From Aulosira sp. ZfuVER01 (lineage in GTDB: Bacteria; Cyanobacteriota; Cyanobacteriia; Cyanobacteriales; Nostocaceae), in contig JAVRCV020000065.1 in NCBI GenBank assembly GCA_034530615.2, positions 1-64,000 on the forward strand: DNA of 64,000 bases, in the 5' to 3' direction. Below, piece after piece: positions 28,314 through 61,035 of the stretch. Every line of letters begins with the position of its first letter. Position 1 is the stretch's first letter. A program made the translations under genes and the position numbers. The notes below the pieces were generated by a model, which saw only the letters and a list, made by a program, of their open reading frames with translations, searched no databases and was not told where the DNA came from.

Positions 28314-31300
28314 TTAAGAACAATTCTTGATCGGAATTTCAATCCAAAACTCTGCGCCTTTTCCAGGTTCAGAAATACACTTCATCTTTCCCTGATGTTT
28401 ATCGACAATTATTTGATAGCTGATAGATAATCCTAAACCCGTACCTTGTCCTACAGGTTTAGTGGTAAAAAAAGGATCGAATAGTCTTTGCTTCACACTT
28501 TCAGCCATTCCCGGTCCGTTATCTTGAATAGAGATACCTACCCAATGCGGATTAATTACTTGCGTGCGAATAGTAATTTTGCTCAGGTTATCGTTAATTT
28601 CGGCTGTTGTTCTTTGAGAGTTGTAGTTATCCAAAGCATCAATAGCATTACTGAAAATGTTCATGAATACTTGGTTTAGCTGTCCGGCGTAACATTCTAC
28701 ATCGGGTAAATTGCCATATTCTTTAATAATTTCAATTGGGGGATGTTCTGGTTTAGCTTTGAGACGGTTCTGTAAAATTAACAGCGTGCTATCTATCCCC
28801 TGGTGAATGTTCACGGGTTTCATTTCTGCTTCATCAAGTCGAGAAAAGTTACGTAACGTCAGTACAATTTCCCGGATACGCTGAGTACCAACTTTCATCG
28901 AAACCAGAGTTTTCGGTAAATCTTCTCTGAGAAAATCAAGGTCAATTTCTGTACTCAAATCTTGAATTTCTGCGGCTATTTCGGGATAAATTTCTTGATA
29001 TAGTTGGATGAGACTGAGTAAATCCTGGGTGTAGCGATCGATGTGAGTCAAGTTACCGTGAATAAAATTAACGGGGTTATTAATTTCATGGGCTACACCA
29101 GCTACAAGTTGACCGAGACTAGACATTTTCTCAGTTTGAATTAACTGGGTTTGCGTCTGCTGTAAATCTAGGAGAGTTTGTTCTAGTGCTGCTGTTTGCT
29201 GTCGCAAAGCTTCTTCAGCTTTTTTGCTATCGCTAATATCCCGTGAGACTCCTACTGTTTGAATAACCTGCTGTTGCGCATCAAAAATTGCAGTCTTGAT
29301 TGTATTGAATAGGCGCTCTTCACCATCGTAACGAATAACTGTTTCTTCAGTTACTAAGGTTTTTCCAGTATTAAATACGTAAGCATCATCTTTCACATAC
29401 TGTTGCGTGTAATCAGGTTTAGCAAAAGGAGCATCAATAATTCCTCTTAACTGATCCAAAGTCATGCCATAATATTCACGAAATGCTTTATTAGCGTAAA
29501 TAATTCGCGATTCCGCACCTTTACATAAAACTAAGTCGGGAATTGCATCAAGAATCTGCTGATAGAGATTTTTTATATCTAATAATTGCTGTTCTGCTTG
29601 TTTGCGATCGCTAATATCTCGTAAAAAGACAATATATTCTTGGCGCTGGCGATTTACTCTATTAGAAATCGTTGTCTCAATAATGCGTTTTGACTGAACG
29701 TTTTGTAAGATTTGCTCGCTTCTGCTTTGCCAATATGCAGGTGTATTATCTAAATCAGCAAAAAATTTATTCAGATGTACCCCAATCAATTGGTTAATAT
29801 TTAATTCTAATAAAACTTCCGCCGCTGGATTAGCTTGGGTAATTATGCCATTCTCATCTAGCACTAAAACTGTATCTGGAACGGTATCTAAGGCAGTAAT
29901 AAAGCGACTTTCAGCCGCTTCTCTAGCTTCAGCAATCGAGGCAATTTGTGGTAAAGTCGTCCAACAGGCGATCGCCACTCCCATAAATGAGAGAATCATT
30001 AGCAAGACTGCTAAGAGATTATCATCTGTATTACCAGGGAGTGGTTCTAAACCCTCCTTCACTATCCAGGTAATCATAACAGTACTACAAATCAACCCTA
30101 CTAGGATTCCTACTTGAAACCCTACAAAGTCTTTAATTTTAGTACTATATAGCTGACGGCGCTGCATCCACCATTGAATATGAAAAGGTGGAAAGGAAAT
30201 TCTGCGGATAGCCGCATCAGCGATTAAAATTATCAGCGGAAACATTAATCCTGCAACTAAGTTGCGCCAGTCCCAAGCCAAGCCACCAACTAATAAAGCT
30301 ACTATCTCCACTAAGCAAAAGGCTAACGAAAACCAAGGCCATCGTACCCCTGGCTTTCCTCGGTTGAGCCATAGACCAAAATGAAATGTAATAATGCATA
30401 ATAAGTAGCTAATTGTAATGACAATTACTAAACTATTTAAATCAGTCCAAAGCAGATAGAACAAACTAAATATAAAAGTAAATATCAGTGCAGGTTGCAG
30501 CACACCTTGGCTAGATACAACTGTAAAGACGGGTGAAAGCTGTCCATCTTGAGCTAATTGATACAAAATCCGAGGGGTATTTGCAACTGCTGTGGCTGCA
30601 CCTAAAAGACAACTAGAGCAAATTAATAATGTCACAATTAGCGAAGCTGAATTACCCCAGAAAGGTGAAGCCACTAAGAAAGTTTTGAAAGTCTCACCTT
30701 GCAACTCTGGATTGCTAGCTAAACGCATCAATACCCAAGAACCGCCTAAAGAAATAATCGGTATAAGATAACCAGCTACCGATAGTAATCGTAACGTTTG
30801 ATGGGGTTTTTGACTATCAGCAACAAAAGCCGCACCTGTTTCTATACTGTAGATAGCATAGACTACAAAGAAAAACCACTTTGGTAATTCTACAAATGAA
30901 AAACTAGGTAAACTGCTAGGAAAAAAGCCAATACTATGTGGTGAAAATGCTAACCAAATCAGTCCTTGAATAGAAAATAAGAGAACTAATCCTACAGCCG
31001 GGATAATGAAACATAAATGCAAAATTGCCAAAGCGCGTGTACCGCTAAATGCCACAGTAAATAGGAGTATTGTTAACCCAATTTTCATTACCATTTCTGG
31101 AAAATGAATACCCCAAGGTTCAAGTTGAGCTTTGATCAATTCTGTGAGCATGACAGCGTTGATTGGAAAAGAACCCCAAGCAACAAAGTATCCTAGAGCT
31201 GCATAACGTCCTAAAAATGGCAAATTTTTCAGCAGTCTACTAGTGTAATTAGCTGTCCCTCCCGCAACATCAGGCCATTGCTTGCCCAAAGCTTGCACCT

Positions 31301-31511
31301 GAAAGCACAGCATAACACCCATAATTGTTGCAGGCACCCACAACCATAAGCCTTGCATTCCCAATCCGGAAGTGATAAAGGGTGCAGATGTAAACCATGA
31401 AAGTAAGCCACACAAACCAAAGCCAAAAGTTTCAATTGCAGTTAAGGAGCGTGGTAGCTTTATAACTGCATAGTTATTTTTATCGACACCCAAAGTTTGC
31501 TGGGTACGCAT
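28314..31511 (-). CDS. APC amino-acid-permease-like membrane domain fused to PAS-PAS-histidine kinase
   Basis: Many TM helices with PDVAGG and RILYQLAQDGQL, two PAS domains, H-box [17 protein letters not shown] and [15 protein letters not shown]. Confidence 0.92.
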   Translation of the reverse strand: MRTQQTLGVDKNNYAVIKLPRSLTAIETFGFGLCGLLSWFTSAPFITSGLGMQGLWLWVPATIMGVMLCFQVQALGKQWPDVAGGTANYTSRLLKNLPFLGRYAALGYFVAWGSFPINAVMLTELIKAQLEPWGIHFPEMVMKIGLTILLFTVAFSGTRALAILHLCFIIPAVGLVLLFSIQGLIWLAFSPHSIGFFPSSLPSFSFVELPKWFFFVVYAIYSIETGAAFVADSQKPHQTLRLLSVAGYLIPIISLGGSWVLMRLASNPELQGETFKTFLVASPFWGNSASLIVTLLICSSCLLGAATAVANTPRILYQLAQDGQLSPVFTVVSSQGVLQPALIFTFIFSLFYLLWTDLNSLVIVITISYLLCIITFHFGLWLNRGKPGVRWPWFSLAFCLVEIVALLVGGLAWDWRNLVAGLMFPLIILIADAAIRRISFPPFHIQWWMQRRQLYSTKIKDFVGFQVGILVGLICSTVMITWIVKEGLEPLPGNTDDNLLAVLLMILSFMGVAIACWTTLPQIASIAEAREAAESRFITALDTVPDTVLVLDENGIITQANPAAEVLLELNINQLIGVHLNKFFADLDNTPAYWQSRSEQILQNVQSKRIIETTISNRVNRQRQEYIVFLRDISDRKQAEQQLLDIKNLYQQILDAIPDLVLCKGAESRIIYANKAFREYYGMTLDQLRGIIDAPFAKPDYTQQYVKDDAYVFNTGKTLVTEETVIRYDGEERLFNTIKTAIFDAQQQVIQTVGVSRDISDSKKAEEALRQQTAALEQTLLDLQQTQTQLIQTEKMSSLGQLVAGVAHEINNPVNFIHGNLTHIDRYTQDLLSLIQLYQEIYPEIAAEIQDLSTEIDLDFLREDLPKTLVSMKVGTQRIREIVLTLRNFSRLDEAEMKPVNIHQGIDSTLLILQNRLKAKPEHPPIEIIKEYGNLPDVECYAGQLNQVFMNIFSNAIDALDNYNSQRTTAEINDNLSKITIRTQVINPHWVGISIQDNGPGMAESVKQRLFDPFFTTKPVGQGTGLGLSISYQIIVDKHQGKMKCISEPGKGAEFWIEIPIKNCS

Positions 31512-31720
31512 AATTAATTATTTAAAATCAACGCTATAAATACTGAGATAACCTATTATTAGGCTTGGTAATAACAGTAGTAATGCTGAACTTTAAATAT
31601 TGCTTAAAATTTTTAAAATTTTATCAGTAATTATCCCAAAAAACGACAAATATACTATAAGCTATCGCCCTAGCGAAGTAGAGTAATATTAAGTATTTTT
31701 ACTTTTAATCAACAAATTTA

Positions 31721-34700
31721 TTATTTGCTAATTGGAATTTGAATCACAAACTCTGTCCCCTCTCCTGGTAGTGAAATACAGTCTATTTTTCCGCCATGTT
31801 TATCTACAACAATTTGATAGGCAATAGATAATCCTAAGCCAGTGCCTTCGCCTACAGGTTTAGTTGTAAAGAAAGGGTCAAAAATTCGTTCTCGAATATT
31901 TTTCGGGATACCTGGGCCATTATCTTTGATAGAGAGACTCACCCAGTCATTTTTAATAACTTGAGTACTAATGGTAATTTTGCTAGGATTATTTTGAATT
32001 TCTGTAAGCGATCGCTTTTGATAATGCCCGTTTAAAGCATCAATTGCATTATTCAGAATATTGAGAAATGCTTGATTTAATTGTGAAGCATAGCAGGCGA
32101 TGGGGGGCAATTTGGCATAATTTTTAATTACAGTAATTTCTGGATAATTGAGATTTGTAATTAACCGCGACTGTAACAGCATTAACGTACTATCTATACC
32201 CTCATGGATATCTACAGACTTAATATCAGCTTCATCGAGTCGAGAGAAGTTTCGTAAACTAAGCACAATATTACGAATACGGTTAGCTCCCACTTTCATA
32301 GAATCTAAAATTTTATGTAAATCTTCTACCAGAAATTCTAAGTCTATATCTTCTTGCGTTTGCTGAATTAACGGTGTCGCTTGAGGATATTCTTGCTGAT
32401 AAACATTAATCAGTTGTAATATAGATGCAATATAGTTATTAGTAGGTTCGATATTGGCGTAAATAAAATTAATCGGATTATTAATTTCATGAGCAACCCC
32501 AGCCACTAATTGCCCCAAGCTAGACATTTTTTCAGATTGTATAAGTTTAGCTTGTGTAACTTTTAGTTCACGTAAAGTTTGTTTCAACCGAATATTTTTT
32601 GCATTTAATGCTTGGGTTCTTGCAGCTACTTTATCTTCTAAATTTGCATAAAGCTGGGCATTTTCTAAAGAAATTGCTGCTTGGGAAGAGAGAAGTTTGA
32701 GGATTTGTAACCTATCAGGGGCAAAAGCATTAACTATCAAATCATTTTCTAAATAAAGAATACCTATTAGCTTTCCTTGATTAACGATAGGAGTAGATAA
32801 TATAGATTTTGGTTGATATTTAATGATATATGGATCGGCAGAAAAATTCGTGTTTTTTATAGCGTCATGAATTAATAAATATTCTTTAGTATGAGCTACA
32901 TAATTAATTAAACTAACTGGTACTTCCTGAGTTTGGGTAATAGGAATAGATAGTAGTTCACATGACTGATGATTTTGGTATTGCGCTACAAGGTTAAAAT
33001 TCCCATTTTCTTGGAGAATCAACGCAGCTTTGTTACCTCCGACATTTTCTAACATTACCTGCATCAGAATTTGGATTAACTTATCTATCTGAATTTCTGA
33101 GCCAATAGCTAGGGATGCTTTAGTAACAGTTTCCAAATCCAATATTGCTGTCACACCAGTACTAGTGGAGTCAACAATTGCATTAGTAATTAAAGCATTG
33201 CTATCGCTACTATTAACACTAACTTGTTTCTGATTGAGAATTGGTAAAAGTAACTGGTGATAGGATTTTGCTAAATCCTCAACTTTGACATTAGCGCCCC
33301 AACGGCTGTAACAGTAGTAAGCATCAATTAGATAGGTTTGGGCAATTTTTTCTTTACCAGCAGCCAAGTAAAATTTAGCAGCAAGTTCATTAGCTATTGC
33401 TTCTTCATGAATAAATTCATTTACCTTAGCGCCTTGAATGGCTCGATCATAAAGTTCCATAGCTTGCCAATTATGGTCTAAAATTCTTGCCTTCTCTGCT
33501 TCTACTAAATCGTACTTGTGTTGATAGTTCATTGGTGCATGAAATGCCCAATGATGCATTTGTTTCTGATTCACTAAAACTTGTTGCAGATATTGCTCTT
33601 GCTCAATACTAGGCTGGTTATTATATTCAGCTAGTAGCGCTAGAGAATAATAAAAATTGTGTTGGCTAACAGAAACTTGTCCAGCAACAGAATTTACATA
33701 TTGTTTGCCTAAACGTGCACTTTCAACTGCACTAATTGATTGGTTAAATAAATAAAATAATATGGTTTTTGCTAAAAATACACAAAAAAGTGAATTATAA
33801 TTATTTGTTTCTATAAATAACTGTAATAGTTCCGATTCATTAAAGAAAACACCATTTAATTCATGTTTATTGGCTGTTGGTTCTAGCAGATTAGATATAA
33901 ATTGCAACCAAATTTTTTGCAAATCGACAGTCCACTGCTGTTTAAGCTTGTGCATCAAGATCCTAGATGCTGCTAATTGCTGAGATACAGATGCCAAATT
34001 TTCTCCAGCAAACAACATGTGTAAGTAATGATTTGAAGAACAATAACCTACATATTCTATATCTCCATTTTCCAATCCAGATTGCACACCTTCTACTAAG
34101 GGGTCTATAGTTGTTCGTAGATGCTGTTTCCAAAATTTAATATTTGCATTCCATACCAGGAATAATCTACATTTAAGTTCTTTAGCATTCAACTTATCCA
34201 ATAAACTCAAAGCTACTTCGCCATAGCGATATCCAGCATCAATTTCTGATAACATACCGCATAGTAGCAAGCCATACAAAACATATCCATAAGTAGAAGC
34301 TGATGAGTTTCCATGCCTTATAGACAGATGTATCATTGTAAATACAATTGATGGCAGTAATGCGGGATTCGCAAAATAAGCCGCAGAAATCATGCTAATT
34401 AATATACGCATAGCAGCAAGTTGATCGGGAGCAGTCATTTTTGGTAAGTTGATTAAATCTTCAACATCCAAATTTTGCGGAGGTGCTGACTCCAGATTTA
34501 CTTCCAGCATATCTAATAGTTTTAGACCTGTATCAATAGCTAATTGCATTTGTATTTGAGCCATATACATCTGCATTTGAGCTTCATAAGCTTTTACTTG
34601 ATCGAGTAGCCTATTTGCATTTTGCTTGACTATTTCTGCGTAGATTGCTGCTTGTTCAAAGTTGATATTTAAGTATTCTGCTTCCATTACTTCTATATAT

Positions 34701-37135
34701 AGATCCAATGTCAGCTGATACTGATGTTGCCAACTATCTGTTTCCAACAATCGCAAACCCATCTGCAAATATCTAATAGCAGCTTCATAAGCAGTCGCTA
34801 ATTTAGCTTTATTACCTGCAATCAGGTTGAGTTGAGCTAATTCGGCTTTTTCTAATTTACTAGTAATTAAGTCAACGCCAATATTGAGTTGATTAACTAT
34901 TTCAAATATATTGTCTTCCAGCTTTTCTAAACTCGTATTTTTTAAAAGAGTCCGCCCAATTTTAAGGTGTATTGCTTTGTTATCTGATTCTGAGATTAGA
35001 GAGTACGCTGCTTGTTGTACGCGATCGTGGAGGAACTTATAGTTAATGCTGACTTTTTGGTCTAAATCATGAACTTCTATTTCTGAGCGAAAACTGGCTT
35101 CAGATTGCTCATCTGTATACAATTTATAAATTTCATCTGTGGGTAAAATTAACCCTTCCTGCAAAACTTGCCATAAATTAGCTCCTATTTCATAATGAGA
35201 TTGTTCGGAAATTAGGGATAAGAGATTTAAATCAAATTTATTTCCAATACAAGCAGCTATTTTTAATGTTTCTAAAGTTAATCTAGGCAACTTTTCTAAG
35301 AGACTAACTAAAAGCTGAACAACATCATCACTTTGGTATAAGATTTCTGCTTCTTTAAGATTATATTGCCAATATCCTGCTTGAAAATCAAAATTAATTA
35401 TTTCATTATTATGCAATGATTTTAATAATTGATTGCTAAAAAAAGGATTGCCTTGGGTTTTGTTAAAGACAAACCTTGTTAAAGGAGCCACTATTGAATC
35501 TGGACATCCTAAAGTATCTCCTATCAAATGACTGATATGAATTTGATCTAAAGGTTTTAAAATAATTTGATTGACTATAGCTTGAGTTTTATAAATCACA
35601 TCTAAGGTCATAAGTAAGGGATGCCCAGAAGTAACTTCATTATCTCTATAAGCACCAATGAGTAACAGATATATAGAATCTGTCTCACTCATTAATAATT
35701 GAATTAATTTTAATGATGCAGAGTCTGCCCATTGCAAATCATCTAAAAAAATGACTAGGGGATGTTCTTTAGTTGCTACTACTTGAATGAATTTACTAAA
35801 TAGCAAATTAAAGCGATTTTGCCCAGCAGTTCCTGTGAGTTCAGGAATTGCTGGTTGTTGACCAACTATCAATTCCAATTCAGGAATTACATCAATTACG
35901 ATCCCTGCTTGTTCTCCTAATGCTGATAAAATATGCTTTTTCCACTCTTGCAATTGATCTGTGCTTGCAGTAAGTAATTGCCCTATAAAACTACGAAAAG
36001 CTTGTACGAATGCAGAAAAAGGAAGATTGCGCTGAAATTGGTCGAATTTACCAGCAATAAAATAACCGTTTTGTCTAATAATTGGTTTATGAACTTCATT
36101 AACAATAGAGGTTTTACCAATACCAGAGAACCCAGCGATTAACATCAATTCTACATTCCCTAAACTAACTCGTTCAAAGGCATTTAATAAAGTGCTAACC
36201 TCGGTTTCTCTGCCATAAAGTTTTTCGGGGATGAGGAAGCGATCGCTTATATCTTTTGCTCCCAATTTCAAGTCTGTAATTTCACCCTGACTTAACAACA
36301 TTTGCTGACAGATTTCTAAATCATGTTGGAGTCCTCTAGCTGTTTGATAACGCTCCTCAGGAGACTTTGCCATTAACTTCAGAATTATGTTGACAATAGT
36401 CTGAGGAATATTGATATTAAGTATTATTGGATTAATAGGTTCCTGTGCAAGATGGCAATGTACTAACTCAACAGGACTCGTGCTATTAAAAGGTAACTGT
36501 CCTGTCAGTAATTCATAAAAAGTCACGCCAAGAGAATAAAAGTCTGTACGGTAGTCTATACCGCGATTCATTCTGCCAGTTTGCTCTGGAGATATATAAG
36601 CCAGAGTTCCTTCTAAAACATTTGGGCTTTTAATCTCAGTATTTTCCTTAGGTAAGATAGAAGAAATACTAAAATCTATCAATTTAACTTGCTTAGTTTC
36701 TGGATTAATTAAAATATTTTTTGGTTTAATATCTTTATGAATAATTTTATTTTTATAGAGGCACTCTAAGGCAGACGCAATTGCAATAGCAATTGGGAGA
36801 AACTCATTTATATATAGAGGTTGAGAGTTCACATATTGACTGAGAGCAATACCACCAAAATCTTCTAATATCAAGGCATAACTATTGCCGTAGGTTTCTA
36901 GCCCATAGCATTTAATAATATTTGGATGGTCGATATAGCTGGATATAGTATACTGATTTTTTAATAAAATTAAGTCTTTGAGTTGCGGATAAGTTGTATT
37001 CAAAACTTTAATAGCAACTGGTTTTTGCGACTGTATTTGGTTAGCACGATAGACGATACTTCTAGCACTAATATGCAGTGTATTGCTAATTTTATAACCA
37101 GCAAGCGTGTTAATTTGTCCAGGTGTCTCAATCAT
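31721..37135 (-). CDS. Ser/Thr kinase-AAA ATPase-GAF-histidine kinase (HstK type)
   Basis: [39 protein letters not shown] (GILYLEN) and H-box AHEINNP. Confidence 0.96.
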
Positions 37136-45230: not shown

Positions 45231-45656
45231 TTATGCTGTCCAATCTTCTATTCGCAGGTTGGGAACTTGAGAAAAATCTTGATAATTACATGTGACCATA
45301 ATGCTATTTGTAGACAGAGCAATCGCAGCAATACGAAGGTCTTTTTGCAGCCTTTTCTTATTGAGTTTTGGGTGTTGTTTCAACAGGCTTTCGTCAGAAG
45401 CATTTGCTGTGGCATCAAAGTTTAATATGACGACGCTCTTAAAATAATCTGTTGTTTCCCAAAGTTTTGTATAGACTATAACCAAATTTTCAGCTTGAGA
45501 TGGATCGTTAAGCTTACCCATCCACCCGTTGAAAATTTCCTGAACTGTAATAATTGTGATAGCTACAGACGATGTTTGAGAAACTTTTGTAATAACTTTG
45601 TGATTACCTTCAAGGAACAGGGACACATGATCTGTATCGAGTATCCATCTGCTCAT
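45231..45656 (-). CDS. PIN-domain (VapC) toxin
   Basis: ILDTD, TVQE, DLRIAAIAL and NYQDFSQVPNLRIEDW. Confidence 0.92.
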   Translation of the reverse strand: MSRWILDTDHVSLFLEGNHKVITKVSQTSSVAITIITVQEIFNGWMGKLNDPSQAENLVIVYTKLWETTDYFKSVVILNFDATANASDESLLKQHPKLNKKRLQKDLRIAAIALSTNSIMVTCNYQDFSQVPNLRIEDWTA

Positions 45657-45988
45657 ACATCATTTGCTGAAGATTCTTGTTCGGTTTCTTGTCTTTGTGC
45701 TCTCATGTCCTCAGCAATTTCTACAAATAGAGGATTGTCCTTAAACATTCCTGCAAATTTCATCCAAGGATGGGGATTTGAAGACAGTTCCATTTGCAAA
45801 GAAACAATTTCTGCTTTAGCTAAACGTTCTGCCAGAAGTTGACGTATTCCATCCAATGCTTGCTGGCGGGTGTCAGATGTAATTCGACATTCAGGAATTT
45901 CTAGTACGATCGCAGTCTCTTTGCCAGTTGTATCTTGTTCTAAAAGAATATTAAAGTCTAAGATGTTTGCTGATTGGGAAGACATCAT
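45653..45988 (-). CDS. Putative antitoxin (HicB-like N-terminus)
   Basis: Overlaps the toxin start (ATGA); AIVLEIPEC...TRQQAL, and C-terminal PWMKFAGMFKDNP. Confidence 0.75.
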   Translation of the reverse strand: MMSSQSANILDFNILLEQDTTGKETAIVLEIPECRITSDTRQQALDGIRQLLAERLAKAEIVSLQMELSSNPHPWMKFAGMFKDNPLFVEIAEDMRAQRQETEQESSANDV

Positions 45989-47746: not shown

Positions 47747-48865
47747 ATGCAATCAGCAGTTACTTCTGAATCTCAAGCAATGGATGCGCCAAAACAAGGT
47801 ATACCTGTAACAATCATTACAGGATTCCTCGGTAGTGGTAAGACAACATTACTTAATCATATCCTGACGAATCAGCAGGGATTAAAAACTGCTGTTTTAG
47901 TCAATGAATTTGGTGAAATTGGCATCGATAACGAATTAATTGTTTCCACCGATGAAAACATGGTGGAACTAAATAATGGTTGTATTTGTTGCACTATTAA
48001 TAGTGATTTAGTTGATGCCGTTTACAAAGTTTTAGAACGTGAAGAAAAGTTAGATTATTTAGTTGTAGAAACAACTGGACTAGCAGATCCATTGCCAGTA
48101 GCTCTAACATTTCTCGGTACAGAATTGCGGGATTTAACTCGTTTGGATTCGATTATTACCGTAGTAGACGCGGCGAATTACAGCCTAGATTTATTTAATT
48201 CTCAGGCAGCATATAGTCAGATTGCCTATGGTGATGTCATTATTTTGAATAAAGCAGATTTAGTTGATGAAGCTGCTTTAAATGAATTAGAACGAAAAGT
48301 TTCGGAAGTTAAAGAAGGAGCGAGAATTCTTCGCACCACACGTTCAGACGTACCACTTCCCTTAATTCTGAGTGTTGGTTTATTTGAGTCTGATAAGTAT
48401 TTTGATAACGTGTCAGACGAACACGAGCATCATCACCACGCTCATGAGCATCATGACCACGACCACGATCATTCTAACTGCGGTCACGATCATCACGACC
48501 ATGACCATGACCATGAGCATCATCACCATCATTCCGACCACTTAGAAAATGATGGTTTTACCTCATTGTCTTTCCAAAGCGACAAGCCTTTTTCTATTAG
48601 GAAGTTTCAATATTTCTTAGATAACCAGCTACCCACTGATGTATTTCGGGCAAAGGGTATTATGTGGTTTGAAGAAAGCCCCAAACGTCATATTTTCCAC
48701 TTGTGTGGCAAACGCTTCACAATGGATGATGATGAGTGGAAAGGTCAACCGAAAAATCAGCTAGTCTTGATTGGTCAACATTTAGATAGCGAAACATTGC
48801 TCAGTCAGCTAGAAAATTGCCTTTGTCTTCCTTCAGTGAGTCGAGGTAAAGGCTTTGGCAAATAG
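47747..48865 (+). CDS. COG0523/CobW-family metallochaperone GTPase
   Basis: GFLGSGKTT, GCICC, ETTG, NKAD and a long His/Asp-rich insert. Confidence 0.95.
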   Translation: MQSAVTSESQAMDAPKQGIPVTIITGFLGSGKTTLLNHILTNQQGLKTAVLVNEFGEIGIDNELIVSTDENMVELNNGCICCTINSDLVDAVYKVLEREEKLDYLVVETTGLADPLPVALTFLGTELRDLTRLDSIITVVDAANYSLDLFNSQAAYSQIAYGDVIILNKADLVDEAALNELERKVSEVKEGARILRTTRSDVPLPLILSVGLFESDKYFDNVSDEHEHHHHAHEHHDHDHDHSNCGHDHHDHDHDHEHHHHHSDHLENDGFTSLSFQSDKPFSIRKFQYFLDNQLPTDVFRAKGIMWFEESPKRHIFHLCGKRFTMDDDEWKGQPKNQLVLIGQHLDSETLLSQLENCLCLPSVSRGKGFGK

Positions 48866-48896
48866 TTTTTAGTTATTTGTCAATACAAACGCCTGG

Positions 48897-48925
48897 TTAG
48901 GGGTTTAGCAATGCTAAACCCTTAC
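48897..48925. repeat. REP-like palindrome
   Basis: taggggtttagca-a-tgctaaaccctta. Confidence 0.7.
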
Positions 48926-48960
48926 GAAAAATCCATATAGCAATCCGTAGAGGAATAAAT

Positions 48961-48994
48961 GCGTAGGCACGAATTGCTTGCCGCTAGGAATCGC
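48961..48994. mobile_element. 26-nt insertion in a HIP1 site
   Basis: GCG-taggcacgaattgcttgccgctagga-ATCGC; identical flanks with an empty HIP1 occur at 49202-49233. Confidence 0.85.
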
Positions 48995-49141
48995 TCTAAT
49001 GCATTAACAATACAAGCCGATGTAATGGCATAACATACTGGTGCATTAACATTGCAAAATGTTGTGTTTAGTGGATTTAACCCGATTAAAAACAGTTGTA
49101 ATGTTGATGAATCTAACGATCGCCTGTTTTGTGGTGAGAGT

Positions 49142-49174
49142 GCGATGTCTTGACAAGCCACTGCGCGTCTACAC
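49142..49174 (-). mobile_element. 25-nt SDR5-like insertion in a degenerate HIP1 site
   Basis: GCGAT-gtcttgacaagccactgcgcgtcta-CAC. Confidence 0.6.
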
Positions 49175-49306
49175 AATTCCTTCCACAGCAGAATTTCAGC
49201 AAGGAATAAATGCGATCGCTCTAATGCATTAACGTAACACGCCTATGTGTTGACATAATAGACCGATCGCCTGCTTTGTGGTAAAAATCTATCAGCTTGC
49301 CAGTAA

Positions 49307-52012
49307 CTATTTTATGCTTGGTACTTCATCCTTAACCTGTTCAAATTTAAATCCACTAACTGGGAGTCCGCCTTTAGTTGGAACTACTCTGACAACAAGA
49401 GGTTCTTTTTGGCTATCACCATTCCGATCAAACTGGAGTGGATATCCTGAAGTTTCGCTCGATGGAAGATTAACAGATCTGAGTTTTTCTAAAACAGTTG
49501 GACGAGTGGGATTGTTTGATGATATGTTTTTAATAGCTGCAATAAAAGCCTGAGTCGCATCATAAGCTGTAGCTGTGCGCCAGCTTATTTGCCCTCCCCA
49601 TGTTTTTCTAGCGTTATCTGCAAATTCTTTTGAATTCTGCTCTTCTGCAAACCAATTTACAGATATCACCAAACCTTCAAAAGCTGATTTCAAAGTGTCC
49701 TGATTATACAAAGTGCCTCCTCCTAACAGAGGCAATTTTTTGCTGATCTGAGCACGGGCAATTGCAAGTGCCACAGAAGTTAACTTTGTATCCGGAAACA
49801 AAACAATTGCATCTGCTTTATCTTCATTTTGAATTTTTAAAATTTCAGCAGATGTATCCAGTGAAGCATCACTCAAATCCTGAGTACGGATAACTTCTGC
49901 GTTCTTATTCTTAAACAGGTTTTCAAACTGTTCTTTTACGTCCTTACTATAAACATCATCAGGATTGTAGAAAATAACTACTCTTTTATAGCCATTCTTG
50001 ATAGCATAATCTGCTAACTTTCCCATCTCTACTTTGGTAGACAGTACTGTTCTAAAGAATACTTTGCCCTTTAACAAAGTACTTGCGCTACCTGGAGATA
50101 GCATTGCTATACCAGCCTTTTCATACTCAGGTAATGCAGCTTGACTGCTTGTACTAGTATAATGTCCAATAACCCCTATAATATTTTGGTTTTTAATTAA
50201 CTCTCTAGCAACTTTTATAGCTTGAGTTTGGTCATTGCTATCATTAGCAATTACTATATTTAAAAGTCGCTTATTCTCTTTACTTCGTAACTCATTAAAA
50301 TCATCTTGTGCCTGTGCAACTCCTCGCAAGAGTTCTTGAGAGATCCCAGATGCTCTATTAGTATCTGGTAAAACAACTGCCAGCGTAATTGGGTTGCCTT
50401 GTTGATATGCTCTAGCATTGTTGTAATAAATTCGCAACTCTGGATCGTAAGGAAAGGCTTGTCTAGCTTTTTTAAAATACTCAACAGCTTGGGTATAATC
50501 TTTGTTTTCAAAAGCTTTAAAAGCCTGAGTGCGACTTGGATTTTCACTTCCACCAAACAAAGTATGCTCACCTTCACTAAGGAATGGCAATCCTGGCTGT
50601 TGCTGTTGTGGTTGTTCCGTTATTAACGTTTGAGGGTCTGACTTATTATTAACAACCGGAGGTTTTTCTCGTGATTGCCAGTATAACCACCCAAGAAGCA
50701 ATGAAATTAGTAGCACTGGAGCAAGTGCTGAGACAATACGCTGCTGCTTTCGTGTTACTAATTCTTGGCTAGCATATAAAAATTGATAATCTTCAACAAG
50801 CAACTGTTTATTTTCTGCCCATGCTTGAGCTTGTCGTAATTTTTGCCCTTGCAAGAGATGCGATTTATTCTGACGACTAGACTCTAGCCATGCTGCTAAT
50901 TCCTTTGCATAAGGTCGCAAATTCGCTAACTCCTGATTTACCCAGTTGTTGTCAAAAACAGACTCATAAATACAGTTAGAAACTCTTAACTTACCATTTT
51001 GCTTAACTACCAATCCCGACAGGCGCAATTCTATTTGCCCCGGACTGTTATCTTCTTCAATTTCTCTTTTTCGTAAAATTTGTTCATATAATTCAAGCAA
51101 CAGATCCGCAGGTTGCTTGTTGCTGAAAATCCGATCGCGTATTGTTCTCAAATGCTCAGGATCATCCTGAGATTGCCAATTTTGGATAATCCGCGATTGC
51201 ACTAATTCCTCTACAGACAATCCTTGCTTATCATCTAAAATAAATTGACAAAGCTTTTGGGTAAGAAAAGGTTGTCCACCAGTCCATTCCAAAACCTCTC
51301 GTAGCTTTTCTTGAGGATTACTAACTTTACCGACTAATCCCGTAGCTAAAGGCTCCGCTTCATCTAAATCAAAACCTTTGAGTTCAATGGCTTGGCCAAT
51401 ATTAAAAGGTGTGCGCTGTTTATCTTGAATCAAATCAGAGGGAGTTGCTACTCCTAAAAGACAAAATGTCAGGCGTTTATATTCTGGTTTATCAGCACGT
51501 TGGTTATAGCAAGCTCGAATCAAAGCAAAAAAATCCTCAGTTGAAAAACTTAGGCTGAGAACGCTATCAATTTCATCTACAAAAATGATAATTTTTTTAT
51601 GAATAGAGGTTAGCATCTCCTCTTCAATAAACTTGCCTAATCGCTGCAATGAAGGCAGTAATCTTTGCGCTTTCCACCATCGGTCTAAATCAAAATTCTC
51701 ATTTAGTTTTAAACTCTTAACCAGCTCGTCAATCACACCTGCATACCATTGATCAGGAGTAACATTATGAGTTCCGATCAAAGTAAGATCAATACCAGCA
51801 CAAGCAATTCCCTCTTCCTGCAACTTTTGCATGGTTTTTACCCGCAAACTTGATTTACCCATCTGCCGCGAGTTTAGGACATAACAGAATTCCCCTGCCT
51901 TCAACTTGTTGTATAAGTCGTCATCTGCCTGCCGCATGACGTAGGTAGGAGAATCAGGAAGTAAAGTACCCCCAACTTGATATTCATAGTTTGGGTTAGG
52001 CGCTGGATTCAT
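49307..52012 (-). CDS. AAA-like (AAA_35) ATPase-TM-TPR-periplasmic branched-chain-amino-acid-type binding protein fusion
   Basis: [22 protein letters not shown] and [13 protein letters not shown]; one TM ([16 protein letters not shown]); [17 protein letters not shown] and [12 protein letters not shown]. Confidence 0.92.
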
Positions 52013-52112
52013 GAGTTATTACCAATGCGGTTGCACAATAATCATTTTCAGGCTTTCCTTTCTGGTTGCAAAGAGGAACTGGGGTAAATTTCTGGGAAAT
52101 TTGAAATCATAA

Positions 52113-53681
52113 CTACAACCCGAAGCGATCGCAAAAATACAGGCGATACAAATCACACAAGGGCAGAACATCATTGCCTGTGTATTTCACCAATCTCATA
52201 TTGCGTAACTTAAATGCTTTATCAACGCCTATTCTAACTGGCCTATTGGCAGCGACTACTTGCTTCATAGCTCTCATAAGTTCTGGATTATCCTGCAAAA
52301 TTGACCAATGGCGCAGCAGGTGGTCGCCGTATAAACCTTCTTGAGTGGGAGCAATTTCCAATAGTTCTTTCAACGTCAGTTCGCGTTGCGCTATTTTATC
52401 CAGTGCCTCTTTTACCAGCCAAGGATGTCCACCAACCATCGCCATAAGTTGAGCAACTTGCTCTGCATTCCAAGGAAGTTGGAGGCGCTGGGCTAAATTC
52501 TGCACCTGTAGCTGATTTAACTCTGGTATTTCAATACCCTTCCCCACGTTGAATGGCGATTTATGTGTATCTATAGGGATGAAATCTTCTTTGGAGTAAG
52601 CAATAACTAACCGTAACCTTTGCCAATTAGTATTATCTCTGCCCTTCTCATACCAAGAGCGTAGTAAGGGAAGAAAGTCACGAGCAATTTGATGAGAGAA
52701 AATTACATCAACGTTATCCAATCCTAAAACCAGGGGACTATTGATTGCTGGCAACAAATATTGTTCAAAGTAGTTTGTACAGTCTTTGTTCGCACTCAGT
52801 GTACCTTTCCAATTCTCAGCCAGCTTATCTGGTATATTCAATTCCTCGGCTATGCTGCTACAAACCCACTTTAAGAAATGTTTCAGCGTACTGAACACTC
52901 TTGTTTCTGGCTCTTGAAAGTCCAAACGTACTGCTTGATAGCCTTGCTGAGTCTTCCCATAATTTAGAATCTGATACATTAAGTAGGTTTTGCCCCATTG
53001 CAAAGGCGCTCTCAACCGAATTAATGCCCCAGGCCTCTTTACCTCCCTGTAGCAATCAGCATAAAAAGCCGTATCGAAAAACGGAAATTCTACATCTGAT
53101 GCTGTTTCTAGGTGTAACAAACCCTCTAAATCCGACCAATTTTCTAGCACCGTAGCCAGGGGTAAAGCTAATGCGCCTTCTGTATTGTCATAAGCGGCAA
53201 TTATGCCAATAACTCGTTGTGTCGCCGCATTAAATACAGGCGAACCACTATACCCACCTTGCACCTGTTGCGAATTCGCCTTAACTCGCAGCCGCAACAT
53301 TGGTAAGCTTCTAAATTTAGACTGGGGATTCATATCGGTAATCGTGCCATCAATTGAAGCCCCTTGGGGAAAATCCGATCGCCCATAGCCAATAGACAAA
53401 AATCGATCCATCGGCTGAAAATTAACAGCTAGGGGTACCGAAGCACCTTGATAACCAGGTAACTGCAAAATGGCAAAATCATCACAGGTGCGATCGCCTA
53501 AATAAACCAAATCCACCCTTTGCCCATTGACTCGCACGTTTTCCCAACCGCCAGTCGCTTCAACTACATGGGCGCAGGTAAGTAAGTGTCCTTGTGATGA
53601 TATGAAAAAGCCTGTACCCCGAATGCTATTTTCCGGAGTGGCGATCGCCACGGTACAAGCTTTAACTAAGTCCCAACTCAT
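52113..53681 (-). CDS. Trypsin-like serine protease fused to an AAA-like (AAA_35) domain
   Basis: GTGF, LTCAHV, DFAIL and GYSGSPV triad; APLQWGKT, LLRSWYE, SPFNVG and MVGGHPWL. Confidence 0.92.
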   Translation of the reverse strand: MSWDLVKACTVAIATPENSIRGTGFFISSQGHLLTCAHVVEATGGWENVRVNGQRVDLVYLGDRTCDDFAILQLPGYQGASVPLAVNFQPMDRFLSIGYGRSDFPQGASIDGTITDMNPQSKFRSLPMLRLRVKANSQQVQGGYSGSPVFNAATQRVIGIIAAYDNTEGALALPLATVLENWSDLEGLLHLETASDVEFPFFDTAFYADCYREVKRPGALIRLRAPLQWGKTYLMYQILNYGKTQQGYQAVRLDFQEPETRVFSTLKHFLKWVCSSIAEELNIPDKLAENWKGTLSANKDCTNYFEQYLLPAINSPLVLGLDNVDVIFSHQIARDFLPLLRSWYEKGRDNTNWQRLRLVIAYSKEDFIPIDTHKSPFNVGKGIEIPELNQLQVQNLAQRLQLPWNAEQVAQLMAMVGGHPWLVKEALDKIAQRELTLKELLEIAPTQEGLYGDHLLRHWSILQDNPELMRAMKQVVAANRPVRIGVDKAFKLRNMRLVKYTGNDVLPLCDLYRLYFCDRFGL

Positions 53682-53690
53682 GACAATTTA

Positions 53691-54035
53691 TTAATTGTTT
53701 TCTTTTGCTGCCAGGTTCCACGTTATTTTCACCTTAAGTGATGCTTGACCACTAGACTCCACTACATAAACTGAGCCTTTGGTAGTAAAATTCACCCCAA
53801 ACTCAACTTCTCCGCTTACGGGTTGTGATTCTTTCTGTAATATTTGAAATGCCTTTGTAATTGGGCGACACCCGCGAACAATTAAATCTTTAACCGCATC
53901 GAAGCTACCCTCTACTTTTTCCATCGGCAACTCACCAGGAGCAGCTACATGGCCTACAGATTCTTCTGGTATCTCTACTGCTACTAAAATTGTGCCGCCA
54001 TCTTCTGTATTGAGTTCTAAAAGTTTACGAGCCAT
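53691..54035 (-). CDS. Trypco1 (CU044_2847-like) small protein
   Basis: EDGGTILVAV, P..GEVEFGVNF...G..YVVESSGQASLKVKITW pattern; 9 nt upstream of the trypsin gene. Confidence 0.85.
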   Translation of the reverse strand: MARKLLELNTEDGGTILVAVEIPEESVGHVAAPGELPMEKVEGSFDAVKDLIVRGCRPITKAFQILQKESQPVSGEVEFGVNFTTKGSVYVVESSGQASLKVKITWNLAAKENN

Positions 54036-54194: not shown

Positions 54195-55340
54195 ATGAAT
54201 TCGCAAACTTCTCGCTCTGACAAAATTTTGGTTGTAGATGATTCTCCAGATAACGTGTTTTTAATCAAAACAATTTTGGAGGAAGAAGGCTACACAATAA
54301 GCACGGCAGAAAATGGTGTTTCGGCTTTAGCACAACTAGAAGCATCTCCTTGTGACTTGGTGTTGCTGGATCTGATGATGCCAGGAATGGATGGTTACGA
54401 AGTTACTAAGCGTATCCGTGATAATGCTTCGATGCAGCAATATATCCCAATACTGCTGATTACTGCTCACGATGCGCCGAATGTTGCGAAAGGATTAGAT
54501 TTAGGCGCTGATGATTTTATCCGCAAGCCGGTAACGGTAGATGAATTGCTGGCGCGAGTGCGATCGCTCTTAAGGTTAAAACACAGTATTGATGAACGTG
54601 ATGAAATTGCTCGTCAGCGTGAAGATTTCGTCTCCCGCCTCACCCATGACTTACGCACTCCCCTAGTAGCCGCAGATCGCGTACTGATGCTGTTTCAGCA
54701 AGGTGCTTTGGGAGCGTTGTCTCCGCAAATACAGGAGGTGATTGCGATCATGGCACGTAGCAATACTAACCTGCTGGCGATGGTCAATACCTTATTGGAA
54801 GTCTACCGCTTTGAAGCTGGGCGCAAAACCTTGGCGTTTCAACCAGTGAATCTCCGCCAACTACTAGATGAAGTGGTAGGAGAATTGATGCCTTTAGCTG
54901 AAGCAAAATCACTGTCAATGAATTTGGTAGTTGCAGATGAAACAACCATTAGTAACACAATGGGCGATCGCTTAGAATTACATCGCTTATTTACTAACCT
55001 TATCGGTAATGCGATCAAATTTACTGACTCTGGCTCAGTAAATATCCGCCTTGCTTCTGCACTTGCAAGTGGCAAAAGTCATGAATCTCCTACTTCGGAA
55101 AATTCCACTTTCAGTGACTACATTATCATTGAAGTAGAAGACACAGGACCAGGTATTTCCATTGCAGAACAAGCCACTTTATTTCAACGATTTCGCCAAG
55201 GAAGTCACAAGAGTTCCGGTAGTGGACTAGGACTGTATCTTTCCCGTCGAATTGTTGAAGCTCATGAAGGTACAATTCGAGTAAAATCTGAGTTTGGTAA
55301 AGGTAGTGTGTTCATTGTTATGCTACCTGTTAAATCGTAA
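54195..55340 (+). CDS. Hybrid receiver-histidine kinase
   Basis: ILVVDD, LLDLMMPGMDG, THDLRTP, NAIKFT, DTGPG and GLGL. Confidence 0.95.
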   Translation: MNSQTSRSDKILVVDDSPDNVFLIKTILEEEGYTISTAENGVSALAQLEASPCDLVLLDLMMPGMDGYEVTKRIRDNASMQQYIPILLITAHDAPNVAKGLDLGADDFIRKPVTVDELLARVRSLLRLKHSIDERDEIARQREDFVSRLTHDLRTPLVAADRVLMLFQQGALGALSPQIQEVIAIMARSNTNLLAMVNTLLEVYRFEAGRKTLAFQPVNLRQLLDEVVGELMPLAEAKSLSMNLVVADETTISNTMGDRLELHRLFTNLIGNAIKFTDSGSVNIRLASALASGKSHESPTSENSTFSDYIIIEVEDTGPGISIAEQATLFQRFRQGSHKSSGSGLGLYLSRRIVEAHEGTIRVKSEFGKGSVFIVMLPVKS

Positions 55341-59055: not shown

Positions 59056-61035
59056 ATGGCAAATCACTGGGCAATTACTATTGGCATCAATCAATATCAT
59101 TTATTTCAACCTTTAAGTTGCGCTCAAGCCGATGCCGAGGCGCTCCAAGACTTTTTGGCTACAGAGGCAGGTTTTATACCCCAACACTGTCTGCTGATGA
59201 CAGACACTTCGCCGCCGCTTAGAGACAAATCCACCTATCCTACAAGGGAAAATATCCTGCTGTTATTAGAGGATTTGGCAGCTTCATATTGGCAACCGCA
59301 TGACCATGTATGGTTGTTCTTTAGCGGTTATGGCATCAACTACAAAGGACAAGATTATTTAATGCCAGTGGAGGGAAACCCCGATCTCGTGCAGGAGACT
59401 GGCATAGAACTGCGATCGCTAATGCAGAGTCTGCAACTGACTGGGCTGAATGTATTCCTACTGCTGGATATCAACCGGGCTTTCGGTACTCAAGCAGATG
59501 CCCCCGTTGGACAAGAAACGCTGGAACTTGCTCAAGAACTACAACTAGCAACAATTCTTTCTTGCCAACCAGAGCAATTCTCCCACGAAAGCCGCGAACT
59601 AGGCCACGGATTCTTTACAGCAGCGTTGTTAGAAGCTTTGCGTTCTGGTCGTGGCAGTAACTTGGTAGATTTAGAACGCTACCTGAGCAATCTCACCCCA
59701 CAATTGTGTCAACATCATTGGCGACCGACACAAAACCCGATCGCGGTTATTCCATCTCAGCAGCAGAATATCTTGCCGCCATTGAGAACCAACAGTATAC
59801 CAACTAAAAGCGAAGTAGAATCCGTTATTTTTCCCGAAGAATCTTTTGCGGTTGCACGTGCAGCACCTTCCCTAGCCGCAAATTCCGCCAAAACTTCACA
59901 TAATTTGCCAAGAACGGCGACACCTAGAGAATTCCAAGGAGTAGAAACTACTGTTAGCCCCAAAGCCAAGCGTACAGCAGTCAGCGAGAAATTGGAGCGC
60001 CAACCAGCCCAAGGCTTAACTGGTAATGTAGTCTCTCAGGCGCTTCTTAACCCAGATCGGCATTTCAAACAGCAACCCCAGATGCTCCCACCTCCTCAAG
60101 AGGTGAATGCTGGGGAACGATCTATTCCTGATTCTTCACCACCTTTCATTTCCCAAGCACCTGTAACTCAGACAAAGACTCCATTGTGGAAACAGTTTTT
60201 ATGGTGGATGGGAGGCAGCTTATTAATATTAGGTTTAGTCGCAGTAGTCTTTCTTCGCAATCAGACACAATTTAGATCTGCTGAAGTATCTAAAACATCA
60301 CCTAATACTGCTACTAATGAGACAAAAGACCTCAAGAATTTACCAAATGCTCGCTCTGTCTCCAACTCCTCTGTACCAACTCAACCCAGCAAACCATCAA
60401 ACTCGCCACCACCCGTCAATTCCCAATCACAAAAGCGGAATAAAGCAGTTTTAGATCTGGCGAAAATGTCCCTGAGGGAAACTCAGGCTAGCGATCTCAG
60501 CTTGGCGATCGCCACGGCTCGCAAAATTCAAGCAGGTGAGCCGCTTTACGAACAAGCGCAAGAGGATATAAAAATCTGGAGTCGGATGATTTTAGATTTG
60601 GCAGAAGGTCGTGCCCAGCAAAGACAGTATGCCAGTGCAGTGGCGGCGGCGCAATTAATTACCAAAGACGAACCACTTTATCCCAAAGCACAAGCTCTGA
60701 TTAACCAATGGCGATTAGAAGCCAAGCAGTATGTTACTAACAAAACTCTTTTAGATGCGGCTAATGCTTTAATTAAGCCAGGACAGGCATCTACATATAA
60801 TCGTGCGATCGAAGTTGCCAAGAAAGTTCCACCAGGTCAACCAGGCTTCGATACAGCACAAAAATCAATTAATAAATGGAGTGACAAAATTTTGGATATA
60901 GCGAAAAATCGCGCTGTCCAAGGGGAACTCAATACAGCAATTGAAACTGCGGCTTTAGTGCCAGAGATGACATCTGCTTATGAAGATGCGCAAGAAGCCA
61001 TCCAAAAATGGCAGGTAAGGCGGATTAAAAATTAG
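59056..61035 (+). CDS. Membrane-anchored pseudo-orthocaspase (peptidase C14 fold)
   Basis: AITIGINQY, AQADA, FFSGYG (His to Tyr), LLDINR (Cys lost) and GHGFFTAALL; one TM, then helical repeats. Confidence 0.9.
   Translation: MANHWAITIGINQYHLFQPLSCAQADAEALQDFLATEAGFIPQHCLLMTDTSPPLRDKSTYPTRENILLLLEDLAASYWQPHDHVWLFFSGYGINYKGQDYLMPVEGNPDLVQETGIELRSLMQSLQLTGLNVFLLLDINRAFGTQADAPVGQETLELAQELQLATILSCQPEQFSHESRELGHGFFTAALLEALRSGRGSNLVDLERYLSNLTPQLCQHHWRPTQNPIAVIPSQQQNILPPLRTNSIPTKSEVESVIFPEESFAVARAAPSLAANSAKTSHNLPRTATPREFQGVETTVSPKAKRTAVSEKLERQPAQGLTGNVVSQALLNPDRHFKQQPQMLPPPQEVNAGERSIPDSSPPFISQAPVTQTKTPLWKQFLWWMGGSLLILGLVAVVFLRNQTQFRSAEVSKTSPNTATNETKDLKNLPNARSVSNSSVPTQPSKPSNSPPPVNSQSQKRNKAVLDLAKMSLRETQASDLSLAIATARKIQAGEPLYEQAQEDIKIWSRMILDLAEGRAQQRQYASAVAAAQLITKDEPLYPKAQALINQWRLEAKQYVTNKTLLDAANALIKPGQASTYNRAIEVAKKVPPGQPGFDTAQKSINKWSDKILDIAKNRAVQGELNTAIETAALVPEMTSAYEDAQEAIQKWQVRRIKN

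Follow-up and report, generated by a model that had tools for sequence, protein, structure and literature searches.

The window analysed here, a 64,000-nucleotide stretch of contig JAVRCV020000065.1 from the cyanobacterium Aulosira sp. ZfuVER01 (Nostocaceae), carries three adjacent open reading frames (ORFs) on its minus strand, at 53691-54035, 52113-53681 and 49307-52012. They are intact and encode a Trypco1 protein of 114 aa (Pfam, 62.8 bits; cut-off 24.6), a 522-aa protease in which a Trypsin_2 domain (61.8 bits) is fused to an AAA_35 domain (391.5 bits), and a 901-aa receptor-like protein with a second AAA_35 domain (118.8 bits) and a Peripla_BP_6 domain (127.9 bits), i.e. a periplasmic-binding protein (PBP) domain. 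The gaps are 9 nt between the Trypco1 and protease genes and 100 nt between the protease and receptor genes, so that the ORF coordinates confirm the co-oriented arrangement described in a first-pass annotation of this DNA. The His/Asp/Ser triad that it called intact is placed by motifs at H38/D68/S145. Its domain calls, namely: Trypco1, trypsin, both AAA_35 domains, a transmembrane (TM) helix and the PBP, are likewise borne out by Pfam, hydropathy and Foldseek. The TPR call is weak, as TPR_19 scores 22.2 bits, below the cut-off of 25, although the AlphaFold2 (AF2) model has three helices at 492-538. The best protein matches come from Nostoc and related filamentous cyanobacteria. Below, AAA1 denotes the upstream AAA_35 domain, AAA2 the downstream one, and AAA1' a degenerate branch of AAA1.

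The 901-aa protein has one hydrophobic helix, at 426-444. Among 99 aligned full-length homologues, chosen from 120 listed, 92 have a similar helix at 400-480; Lys and Arg are richer on its N side in 83 of these, equal in 8 and reversed in 1. By this positive-inside bias, AAA2 is predicted to lie inside the cell and the PBP outside, which supports the earlier proposal of an extracytoplasmic PBP with its AAA domain in the cytoplasm. The AF2 model of the whole protein (pLDDT 84.4, pTM 0.53) has LivK (3td9) as its best Foldseek match, with an E-value of 1.3e-18 and a TM-score over the target of 0.84. In the ligand cleft, Ser620 is kept in 99/99 homologues, Ser642 in 98/99 and Tyr688 in 95/99. Ser620, position 643 and Tyr688 align with S79, T102 and Y150 of LivK, which we take to be its amino-acid cleft residues.

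In a tree with long branches, the PBP falls among kinase-fused and TM-anchored PBPs and well apart from the three lipoprotein- or transporter-type binding proteins of the genome. We rejected the possibility that it is a stray ABC-transporter subunit on account of its fusion to a TM helix and AAA2, its separate place in the tree, the absence of a permease gene beside it and its score against NF011933 (58 bits; cut-off 477). It thus also differs from a HAAT (LivJ/LivK type) binding protein, which is free or lipid-anchored. Receptor-type PBPs elsewhere are fused to a Ser/Thr kinase, lie beside a kinase gene or stand alone with an N-terminal TM helix (L063:741-3113; L007:4450-7365; L006:6015-7415).

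The first-pass annotation had contrasted the solute-binding ectodomain with cytoplasmic TPR or WD40 sensors. From hydropathy only, 21 of the 23 AAA2 proteins that end in something other than a PBP are predicted to have a TM helix, WD40 and GUN4 versions among them; the two exceptions end in a kinase. Membrane anchoring, and with it a place as a surface receptor, thus appears to be the norm of the AAA2 family. The contrast with cytoplasmic sensors therefore fails, while the idea of a surface receptor can be extended to all of the family.

The AAA domain fused to the protease, on which the first-pass annotation did not remark, is by its motifs a degenerate subtype. Its Walker A motif reads LQWGKTY, with Trp and Tyr, its Walker B motif is D-N, and an upstream Arg is lost; these changes are common to 11/11 members, which form one branch (support 100). 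The upstream Arg is kept by 36 of 37 other AAA1 domains and the Walker B Glu by only 22 of the 37, while Arg341 is invariant in 48/48 AAA1. Another 17 proteins of the full-length trypsin-AAA1' type show 67-79% identity. No TM segment or signal is predicted in the trypsin domain, which is 85-88% identical to that of three same-genus genomes with other sensors, and all three triad motifs are found in 30 of the 31 full-length trypsin domains examined. On the AAA2 side, the Walker B motif DE[IV]D is present in 51/51 sequences.

AAA1 and AAA2 travel as a pair: 44 of 48 AAA1 genes are directly followed by an AAA2 gene, and trees of the two, made by a quick method, largely agree. An AAA1'-AAA2 heterodimer modelled with ATP and Mg scores 0.69, against 0.00 for the best control; at least 90% of contacts recur between runs, and partner pLDDT is at least 87. 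Of solved pairs, 116 of 157 come up to this mark, as do 2 of 215 mismatched ones; both counts are only roughly valid for the AAA1'-AAA2 model. In the model, the P-loop region of AAA2 (residues 14-19, 49 and 54-58) meets the face of AAA1' that bears Arg341. For neither AAA domain did we find a solved structure of a sequence relative beyond a short RecA P-loop match. The modelled contact supports a heterodimer of AAA1' and AAA2, in line with the AAA-AAA assembly originally suggested, and we infer that AAA2 is the working switch, with AAA1' a helper that completes the AAA2 site and carries the effector.

A relative of the Trypco1-protease module has been studied experimentally. In a 2025 bioRxiv preprint, Pepco, which is equated with Trypco1 and Trypco2, forms beta-barrels of 9-10 subunits and becomes toxic after trypsin-Avs4 cuts it after Ile97 in its C-terminal tail (10.1101/2025.11.14.688446, PMC12642450). 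The barrels are SDS-stable, the triggered Pepco-trypsin-Avs4 system kills in a manner that requires the catalytic Ser, and the sensors of Pepco-protease systems include 'transmembrane STAND ATPases' (10.1101/2025.11.14.688446). A protease-activated Trypco effector, as the first-pass annotation imagined, therefore has experimental precedent, with a Trypco2-type protein. The window operon resembles SsPepco-SsAvs4 in that a small non-enzymatic Trypco gene immediately precedes the gene for a trypsin-STAND fusion, in its intact serine protease triad, and in an amphipathic helix followed by a polar/apolar beta-hairpin; it differs in placing the sensor on a separate chain, where a TM helix and a LIV-fold ectodomain stand in place of the portal sensor of Avs4.

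The helix of Trypco1 (residues 44-69) has a hydrophobic moment of 0.58, equalled by 1 of 2000 shuffles. In the hairpin (residues 75-107), polar and apolar columns alternate strictly across alignments of 69 and 21 sequences, and its moments are equalled by 10 and 1 of 2000 shuffles. The monomer model is of low confidence (mean pLDDT 55.5), with a low-confidence or disordered N-terminal loop; a structure search with it gave no match at Z of at least 5, the best being SPFH-type at 4.6, and an ESM Atlas search returned Trypco1 clusters only. Of 69 close homologues, 63 keep V27 and 65 keep V30 in this loop. Because of this conserved Val and the Ile preference reported for such proteases, we predict that the protease cuts Trypco1 after Val30, which would leave a helix-first protein like Trypco2.

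The loop was surveyed in 68 Trypco1 loci (73 of 106 matches were examined and 5 were dropped as miscalled, fused or frameshifted). The motif x-[IV]-[SGA] occurs in 28 of the 30 Trypco1 proteins with an adjacent trypsin, and [KR]-[GD] in 2 of those 30 vs. 28 of the 38 others. As many as 34 of these 38 belong to one branch, which has no adjacent trypsin; the contrast represents one evolutionary event and is therefore suggestive only. Activation at the C-terminus, as in SsPepco, was considered and rejected because the site is absent; Ile or Val occurs in the tail of 19/69 close and 2/21 diverse trypsin-adjacent homologues, and 7 of the latter 21 end at most 4 residues past the last Trp. Leu108, present in 56/69 close and 6/21 diverse homologues, could conceivably serve as P1. 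The branch of 34 stand-alone proteins mostly combines a [KR]-[GD] loop with a C-terminal x-C-x-F end (e.g. L091, L093, L095-L097 and others, and C74:4008-4352 and C41:205469-205726 in the same genome as the window), and its members are candidates for in-trans cleavage by Arg/Lys-specific caspase-like proteases.

The operon sits beside a receiver-histidine kinase gene that is present in 15/15 genomes of the genus, 11 of them without a match to the window Trypco1, and that lies inside the fetched region at 32 of the 41 places where Trypco1 was found (see below). Since it occurs with or without the system, it was rejected as a component. In 13 fetched relatives, with one genus genome left out as the gene lies at its contig end, the position beside it is occupied by a solitary NACHT-NCH2 gene in 7 (identified by Pfam in 6 and by likeness in 1), by Trypco1 with trypsin-NACHT in 1, by Trypco1 with trypsin-TIR-AAA1 and AAA2 in 2, and by nothing comparable in 3. 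The same-genus Trypco1 and trypsin are 94-95% and 85-88% identical to those of the window and are fused to NACHT in one genome and to TIR-AAA1 in two. This site is a hotspot.

Across the operon and the neighbouring kinase gene, synonymous divergence (dS) from L130, a locus in another genus of the family, is 1.12 for the kinase, 0.97 for trypsin and 0.69 for Trypco1, and falls to 0.41 for AAA1', 0.28 for AAA2 and 0.37 for the PBP. The AAA1-AAA2-PBP block is likewise low in dS vs. L008 and L010, but not vs. L012 and L014. Blastn similarity to same-genus loci L071, L075 and L076 stops at 53127-53128 and similarity to the TIR versions L015 and L016 starts at 53142; the peptide at the junction is chimeric, and the breakpoint is common to other swaps. 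From the dS contrast, the similarity edges and the chimeric peptide, we conclude that the AAA1'-AAA2-TM-PBP block moved as a unit in behind a resident Trypco1-trypsin module. The ratio dN/dS is below 0.5 in every part, which points to purifying selection throughout; it is highest for the PBP in all five comparisons (0.37-0.45). On the other side of the operon, CobW adjoins the site (47747-49300), where most relatives have a urease operon, and ureC is on contig C7; this far flank was therefore rearranged.

A survey of 301 genomes of the family located Trypco1 of the window type in 40, with 41 places in all. A PBP receptor lies behind it at 8 places, with all three frames intact at 5, the window included; 22 places carry another STAND partner or sensor, 1 carries a trypsin-NACHT fusion, and 10 hold remnants, as expected for a costly, high-turnover locus. 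The alternatives behind Trypco1 include a multi-TM protein with Ig-like and 3-keto-disaccharide-hydrolase-like ends (11 places, 2 of them broken or cut off), WD40 (3), a histidine kinase (2), a second trypsin (2) and, at one place each, a peptidoglycan-binding domain, a tandem AAA2-TPR, an unnamed TM domain and a different trypsin-AAA1 pair. Upstream, the chain that occurs most often is trypsin-TIR-AAA1.

The reverse comparison gives a similar picture. Among the matches listed, 16 other full-length AAA2-TM-PBP genes occur in 10 of 61 genomes, preceded by CHAT-AAA1 in 8 cases (one with IS66 between), by an HTH-like or short-headed AAA1 in 7 and by none in 1; Trypco1-trypsin precedes 0 of the 16. 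In a genome scan, TIR stands in place of Trypco1-trypsin before the same AAA1 type in 4 of 12 loci (six loci common to two surveys were counted once). The trio is thus one combination in a modular system and not the conserved unit that had been supposed; effector and sensor blocks swap independently, which, like the architecture, the triad and the selection, is read directly from the sequences.

Several related loci illustrate the range of ends. Behind Trypco1-trypsin-TIR-AAA1, AAA2 ends in TM-trypsin-TM, a histidine kinase, a TM-flanked domain without a Pfam match or a SPOR-like domain with four peptidoglycan-binding repeats (L113:3803-6445, L124:3048-5690, L117, L127, L136, L071). The commonest sensor at the site consists of an unnamed Ig-like part, 3-7 TM helices and a weak 3-keto-disaccharide-hydrolase-like end (L013, L076, L115, L123, L126, L137, L138, L143-L145). 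The window's own genome has further AAA_35 loci (L001-L004): CHAT-AAA1 with AAA2-TM-GUN4, CHAT-TIR-AAA1 with AAA2-WD40, an HTH-like AAA1 3.6 kb from AAA2-TM-WD40, and an orphan HTH-AAA1.

The MNS clade, whose name occurs in PMC8195603 and which was reportedly described by Leipe et al. in 2004, is said to include the Npun2340/2341 family of adjacent paralogous STAND genes with variable end domains in cyanobacteria; the AAA1/AAA2 pairing resembles this reported arrangement. We found no account of a heterodimer, a degenerate upstream partner or a TM-ectodomain rule. Avs and bacterial NACHT (NLR-like) antiphage proteins are single-chain, mostly cytoplasmic TPR, WD40 or FGE sensors of phage proteins (10.1101/2022.07.19.500537; 10.64898/2026.01.04.697583). 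The window system shares their effector-STAND-sensor logic, swapping of effectors between close relatives, trypsin and TIR effectors, and even its site, which NACHT genes occupy in relatives; unlike them, it is split over two genes, each with an AAA_35 domain, and its sensor is predicted to be extracytoplasmic. Intact Walker A and B motifs are present in AAA2, whereas AAA1' has the changes given above.

Other parallels concern single parts. TM-PBP is fused to a caspase in EACC1 systems (PMC7159879), and proteases are linked to PBP/ANF-type extracellular ligand-binding domains in cyanobacteria (PMC7159879, PMC3501461, PMC2853523). Those caspase- or kinase-TM-PBP (ANF_receptor) proteins and EACC1 are, in contrast, direct fusions to caspase-type proteases with no STAND pair or Trypco1. 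The Trypco1-trypsin pairing itself was defined with VMAP and iSTAND MoxR-vWA ternary systems (PMC7159879), whereas no MoxR, vWA or VMAP gene lies beside the window operon, which is flanked by the receiver-kinase gene and CobW. The parts and most pairings have already been catalogued. Our literature search, whose matches were partly irrelevant, found no published study of the trio or of AAA_35 pairs, although figures or supplements may show the architecture. As regards the receptor and the AAA pair, our searches bear out the earlier statement that no characterised example was known; the effector logic, by contrast, has one in Pepco-trypsin-Avs4. The window operon joins this known type of death module to a two-chain transmembrane STAND receptor.

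We propose an NLR-like switch that is built from two chains, is anchored in the membrane and controls a death effector activated by proteolysis; to this reading we give an even chance. The 901-aa protein would be a single-pass receptor with its LIV-fold domain outside and a working STAND-like ATPase, AAA2, inside; the hydrolysis-poor AAA1' of the 522-aa partner would dock on the nucleotide site of AAA2 and bring the protease with it. A signal on the envelope side, most likely an amino acid or small peptide (e.g. from lysis or cell-wall debris), would change the receptor, and AAA1'-AAA2 assembly would then cluster the proteases. Cut by these after Val30, Trypco1 would release its helix and hairpin as a unit that would form or open a beta-barrel pore, and the cell would be sacrificed within its filament. 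Here we infer the ligand, the direction of signalling, the oligomer, the cleavage site, the pore and death.

A wider claim is possible but doubtful, namely: that cyanobacterial AAA_35 pairs form a large class of two-chain transmembrane NLR-like receptors, each with an active sensor ATPase and a degenerate, effector-carrying helper, and that the present member couples an extracellular amino-acid-type danger signal to death via a Trypco1 pore unlocked by N-terminal and not C-terminal cleavage.

Several observations weigh against the proposed death switch. At the cleft, position 643 is a hydroxyl residue (Thr or Ser) in 93 of 99 homologues and Ala in the window copy, and position 766 is Gly in the window copy vs. 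Asp in 38, Ser in 19 and Asn in 18 of 99, so that the ligand of this copy may have shifted or been lost; common amino acids would, besides, be a risky trigger for suicide. Columns at the interface of the AAA pair show no excess conservation over the average (0.56 vs. 0.65). The loose I/V motif of the loop is also present in 21 of the 38 Trypco1 proteins without an adjacent trypsin, and the 8-residue tail of the window Trypco1 has no C-terminal Ile/Val cleavage site. The SsPepco that was tested is Trypco2-like by eye and has a C-terminal Ile site, whereas the window protein is a Trypco1 with a loop Val; homology between Trypco1 and Trypco2 was not significant by hhalign with small alignments of 21 and 7 sequences (probability 0.2%). 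The immediate neighbours of the trio are housekeeping or signalling genes, PADLOC gave domain-level matches to the protease only and none to the receptor or Trypco1, and the literature search found no experiment on any AAA_35 pair or on Trypco1. Finally, the HTH-like or short-headed AAA1 at 7 of the 16 other receptor loci suggests transcriptional output.

This last point also favours a somewhat unlikely alternative, in which the same wiring is non-lethal and a developmental or symbiosis-related receptor uses proteolysis of Trypco1 or other substrates for a graded response. Related PBPs fused to or beside Ser/Thr kinases and the two Trypco1 loci that end in a histidine kinase fit such signalling, and AAA2 matches in 55 of 61 related genomes are too regular for a typical defence island. 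However, replacement of Trypco1-trypsin by TIR heads, NACHT proteins as alternative occupants of the site, the pore-stem signature of Trypco1 and frequent decay of the locus all speak against this alternative.

A reading that keeps the relay otherwise unchanged but makes the PBP, instead of a small-molecule sensor, a bait or guard for a protein or peptide from a phage, predator or competitor, or else an output domain, is unlikely. The PBP does have the highest dN/dS of the parts, its cleft has drifted in the window copy, other ectodomains at the site (WD40, peptidoglycan-binding, second trypsin) are of types that bind proteins or polymers, and variable C-terminal domains, including TM-PBP, are read as effectors in PMC7159879; the residues aligned with the amino-acid site of LivK are nevertheless conserved family-wide. 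It is very unlikely that the trio arose recently by chance from cassette exchange, lacks a functioning relay in this genome and is drifting: the chimeric junction, the 3 of 8 PBP-type places that are broken, and the degenerate AAA1' motifs and cleft changes suit such a reading, but the three intact frames, the low dN/dS in every part, the fixation of the AAA1' changes in 11/11 and the 17 further trypsin-AAA1' proteins do not.

The bacterial STAND sensors that have been characterised recognise phage proteins within the cell. If the proposed death switch is right, a sensor-helper STAND pair that crosses the membrane and monitors the envelope would carry NLR logic over to surface receptors, and regulated death in filamentous cyanobacteria would gain a concrete path from trigger to executioner. 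As the locus is small and naturally modular, questions on AAA_35 pairs, the ligands of receptor-type PBPs and whether Trypco1 acts in the manner of the characterised Trypco2-type Pepco are directly testable.

Table 1. Positions of the operon's features and of its landmark gene in the window.
Feature	Position	Strand	Basis
Trypco1 (Pepco-type) protein, 114 aa, predicted latent pore-forming effector	53691..54035	-	PF19493 62.8 bits; NF041216 44.7 bits; dN/dS 0.06-0.18 (8 pairwise comparisons)
Loop motif V27-G-H-V30-A31, predicted protease site after Val30	53943..53957	-	homologue conservation; disordered in model
Amphipathic helix, residues 44-69	53829..53906	-	hydrophobic moment; model helix 45-70
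Amphipathic beta-hairpin, residues 75-107, hydrophobic turn, pore-stem-like	53715..53813	-	polar/apolar alternation
Trypsin-like serine protease domain, residues 1-185, triad H38/D68/S145	53127..53681	-	Pfam, motifs
Recombination junction: resident Trypco1-trypsin module / incoming AAA1'-AAA2-PBP block	53127..53142	.	blastn similarity edges; junction peptide
AAA1', degenerate AAA_35 (STAND-like) domain	52113..53096	-	Walker motif changes; Arg341 kept
100-nt intergenic spacer	52013..52112	.	78-91% identical (spacer + edges) in closest PBP-type loci
AAA2, AAA_35 domain + helical stalk, residues 1-420, intact Walker A and B	50753..52012	-	PF14516 118.8 bits
Single TM helix, residues 426-444, predicted N-in/C-out	50681..50737	-	hydropathy, homologue charge bias
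Three-helix TPR-like unit, residues 492-538	50399..50539	-	sub-threshold Pfam TPR; helices in AF2 model
Type I periplasmic-binding (LIV/HAAT-fold) ectodomain, receptor-type subfamily	49412..50392	-	Pfam, Foldseek, tree
Divergent receiver-histidine kinase gene, landmark of variable site	54195..55340	+	in 15/15 genus genomes

Promoter-like and terminator-like sites are at chance level (17 vs. 12.8 +/- 3.8 and 6 vs. 4.7 +/- 2.4, respectively), and no terminator-like site was found inside the 100-nt spacer. Elsewhere in the window, two small overlapping genes without Pfam matches (45231-45988, minus strand) resemble a PIN toxin and antitoxin pair. A low-GC stretch (34-38%) at 28314-37135, also on the minus strand, holds genes for an amino-acid-permease-PAS-histidine kinase and a kinase-AAA_16-GAF-histidine kinase. 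On the plus strand, 59056-61035 encodes a membrane-anchored Peptidase_C14 protein whose catalytic dyad is Tyr and Asn, like the H-Y C-N type listed in PMC2853523.

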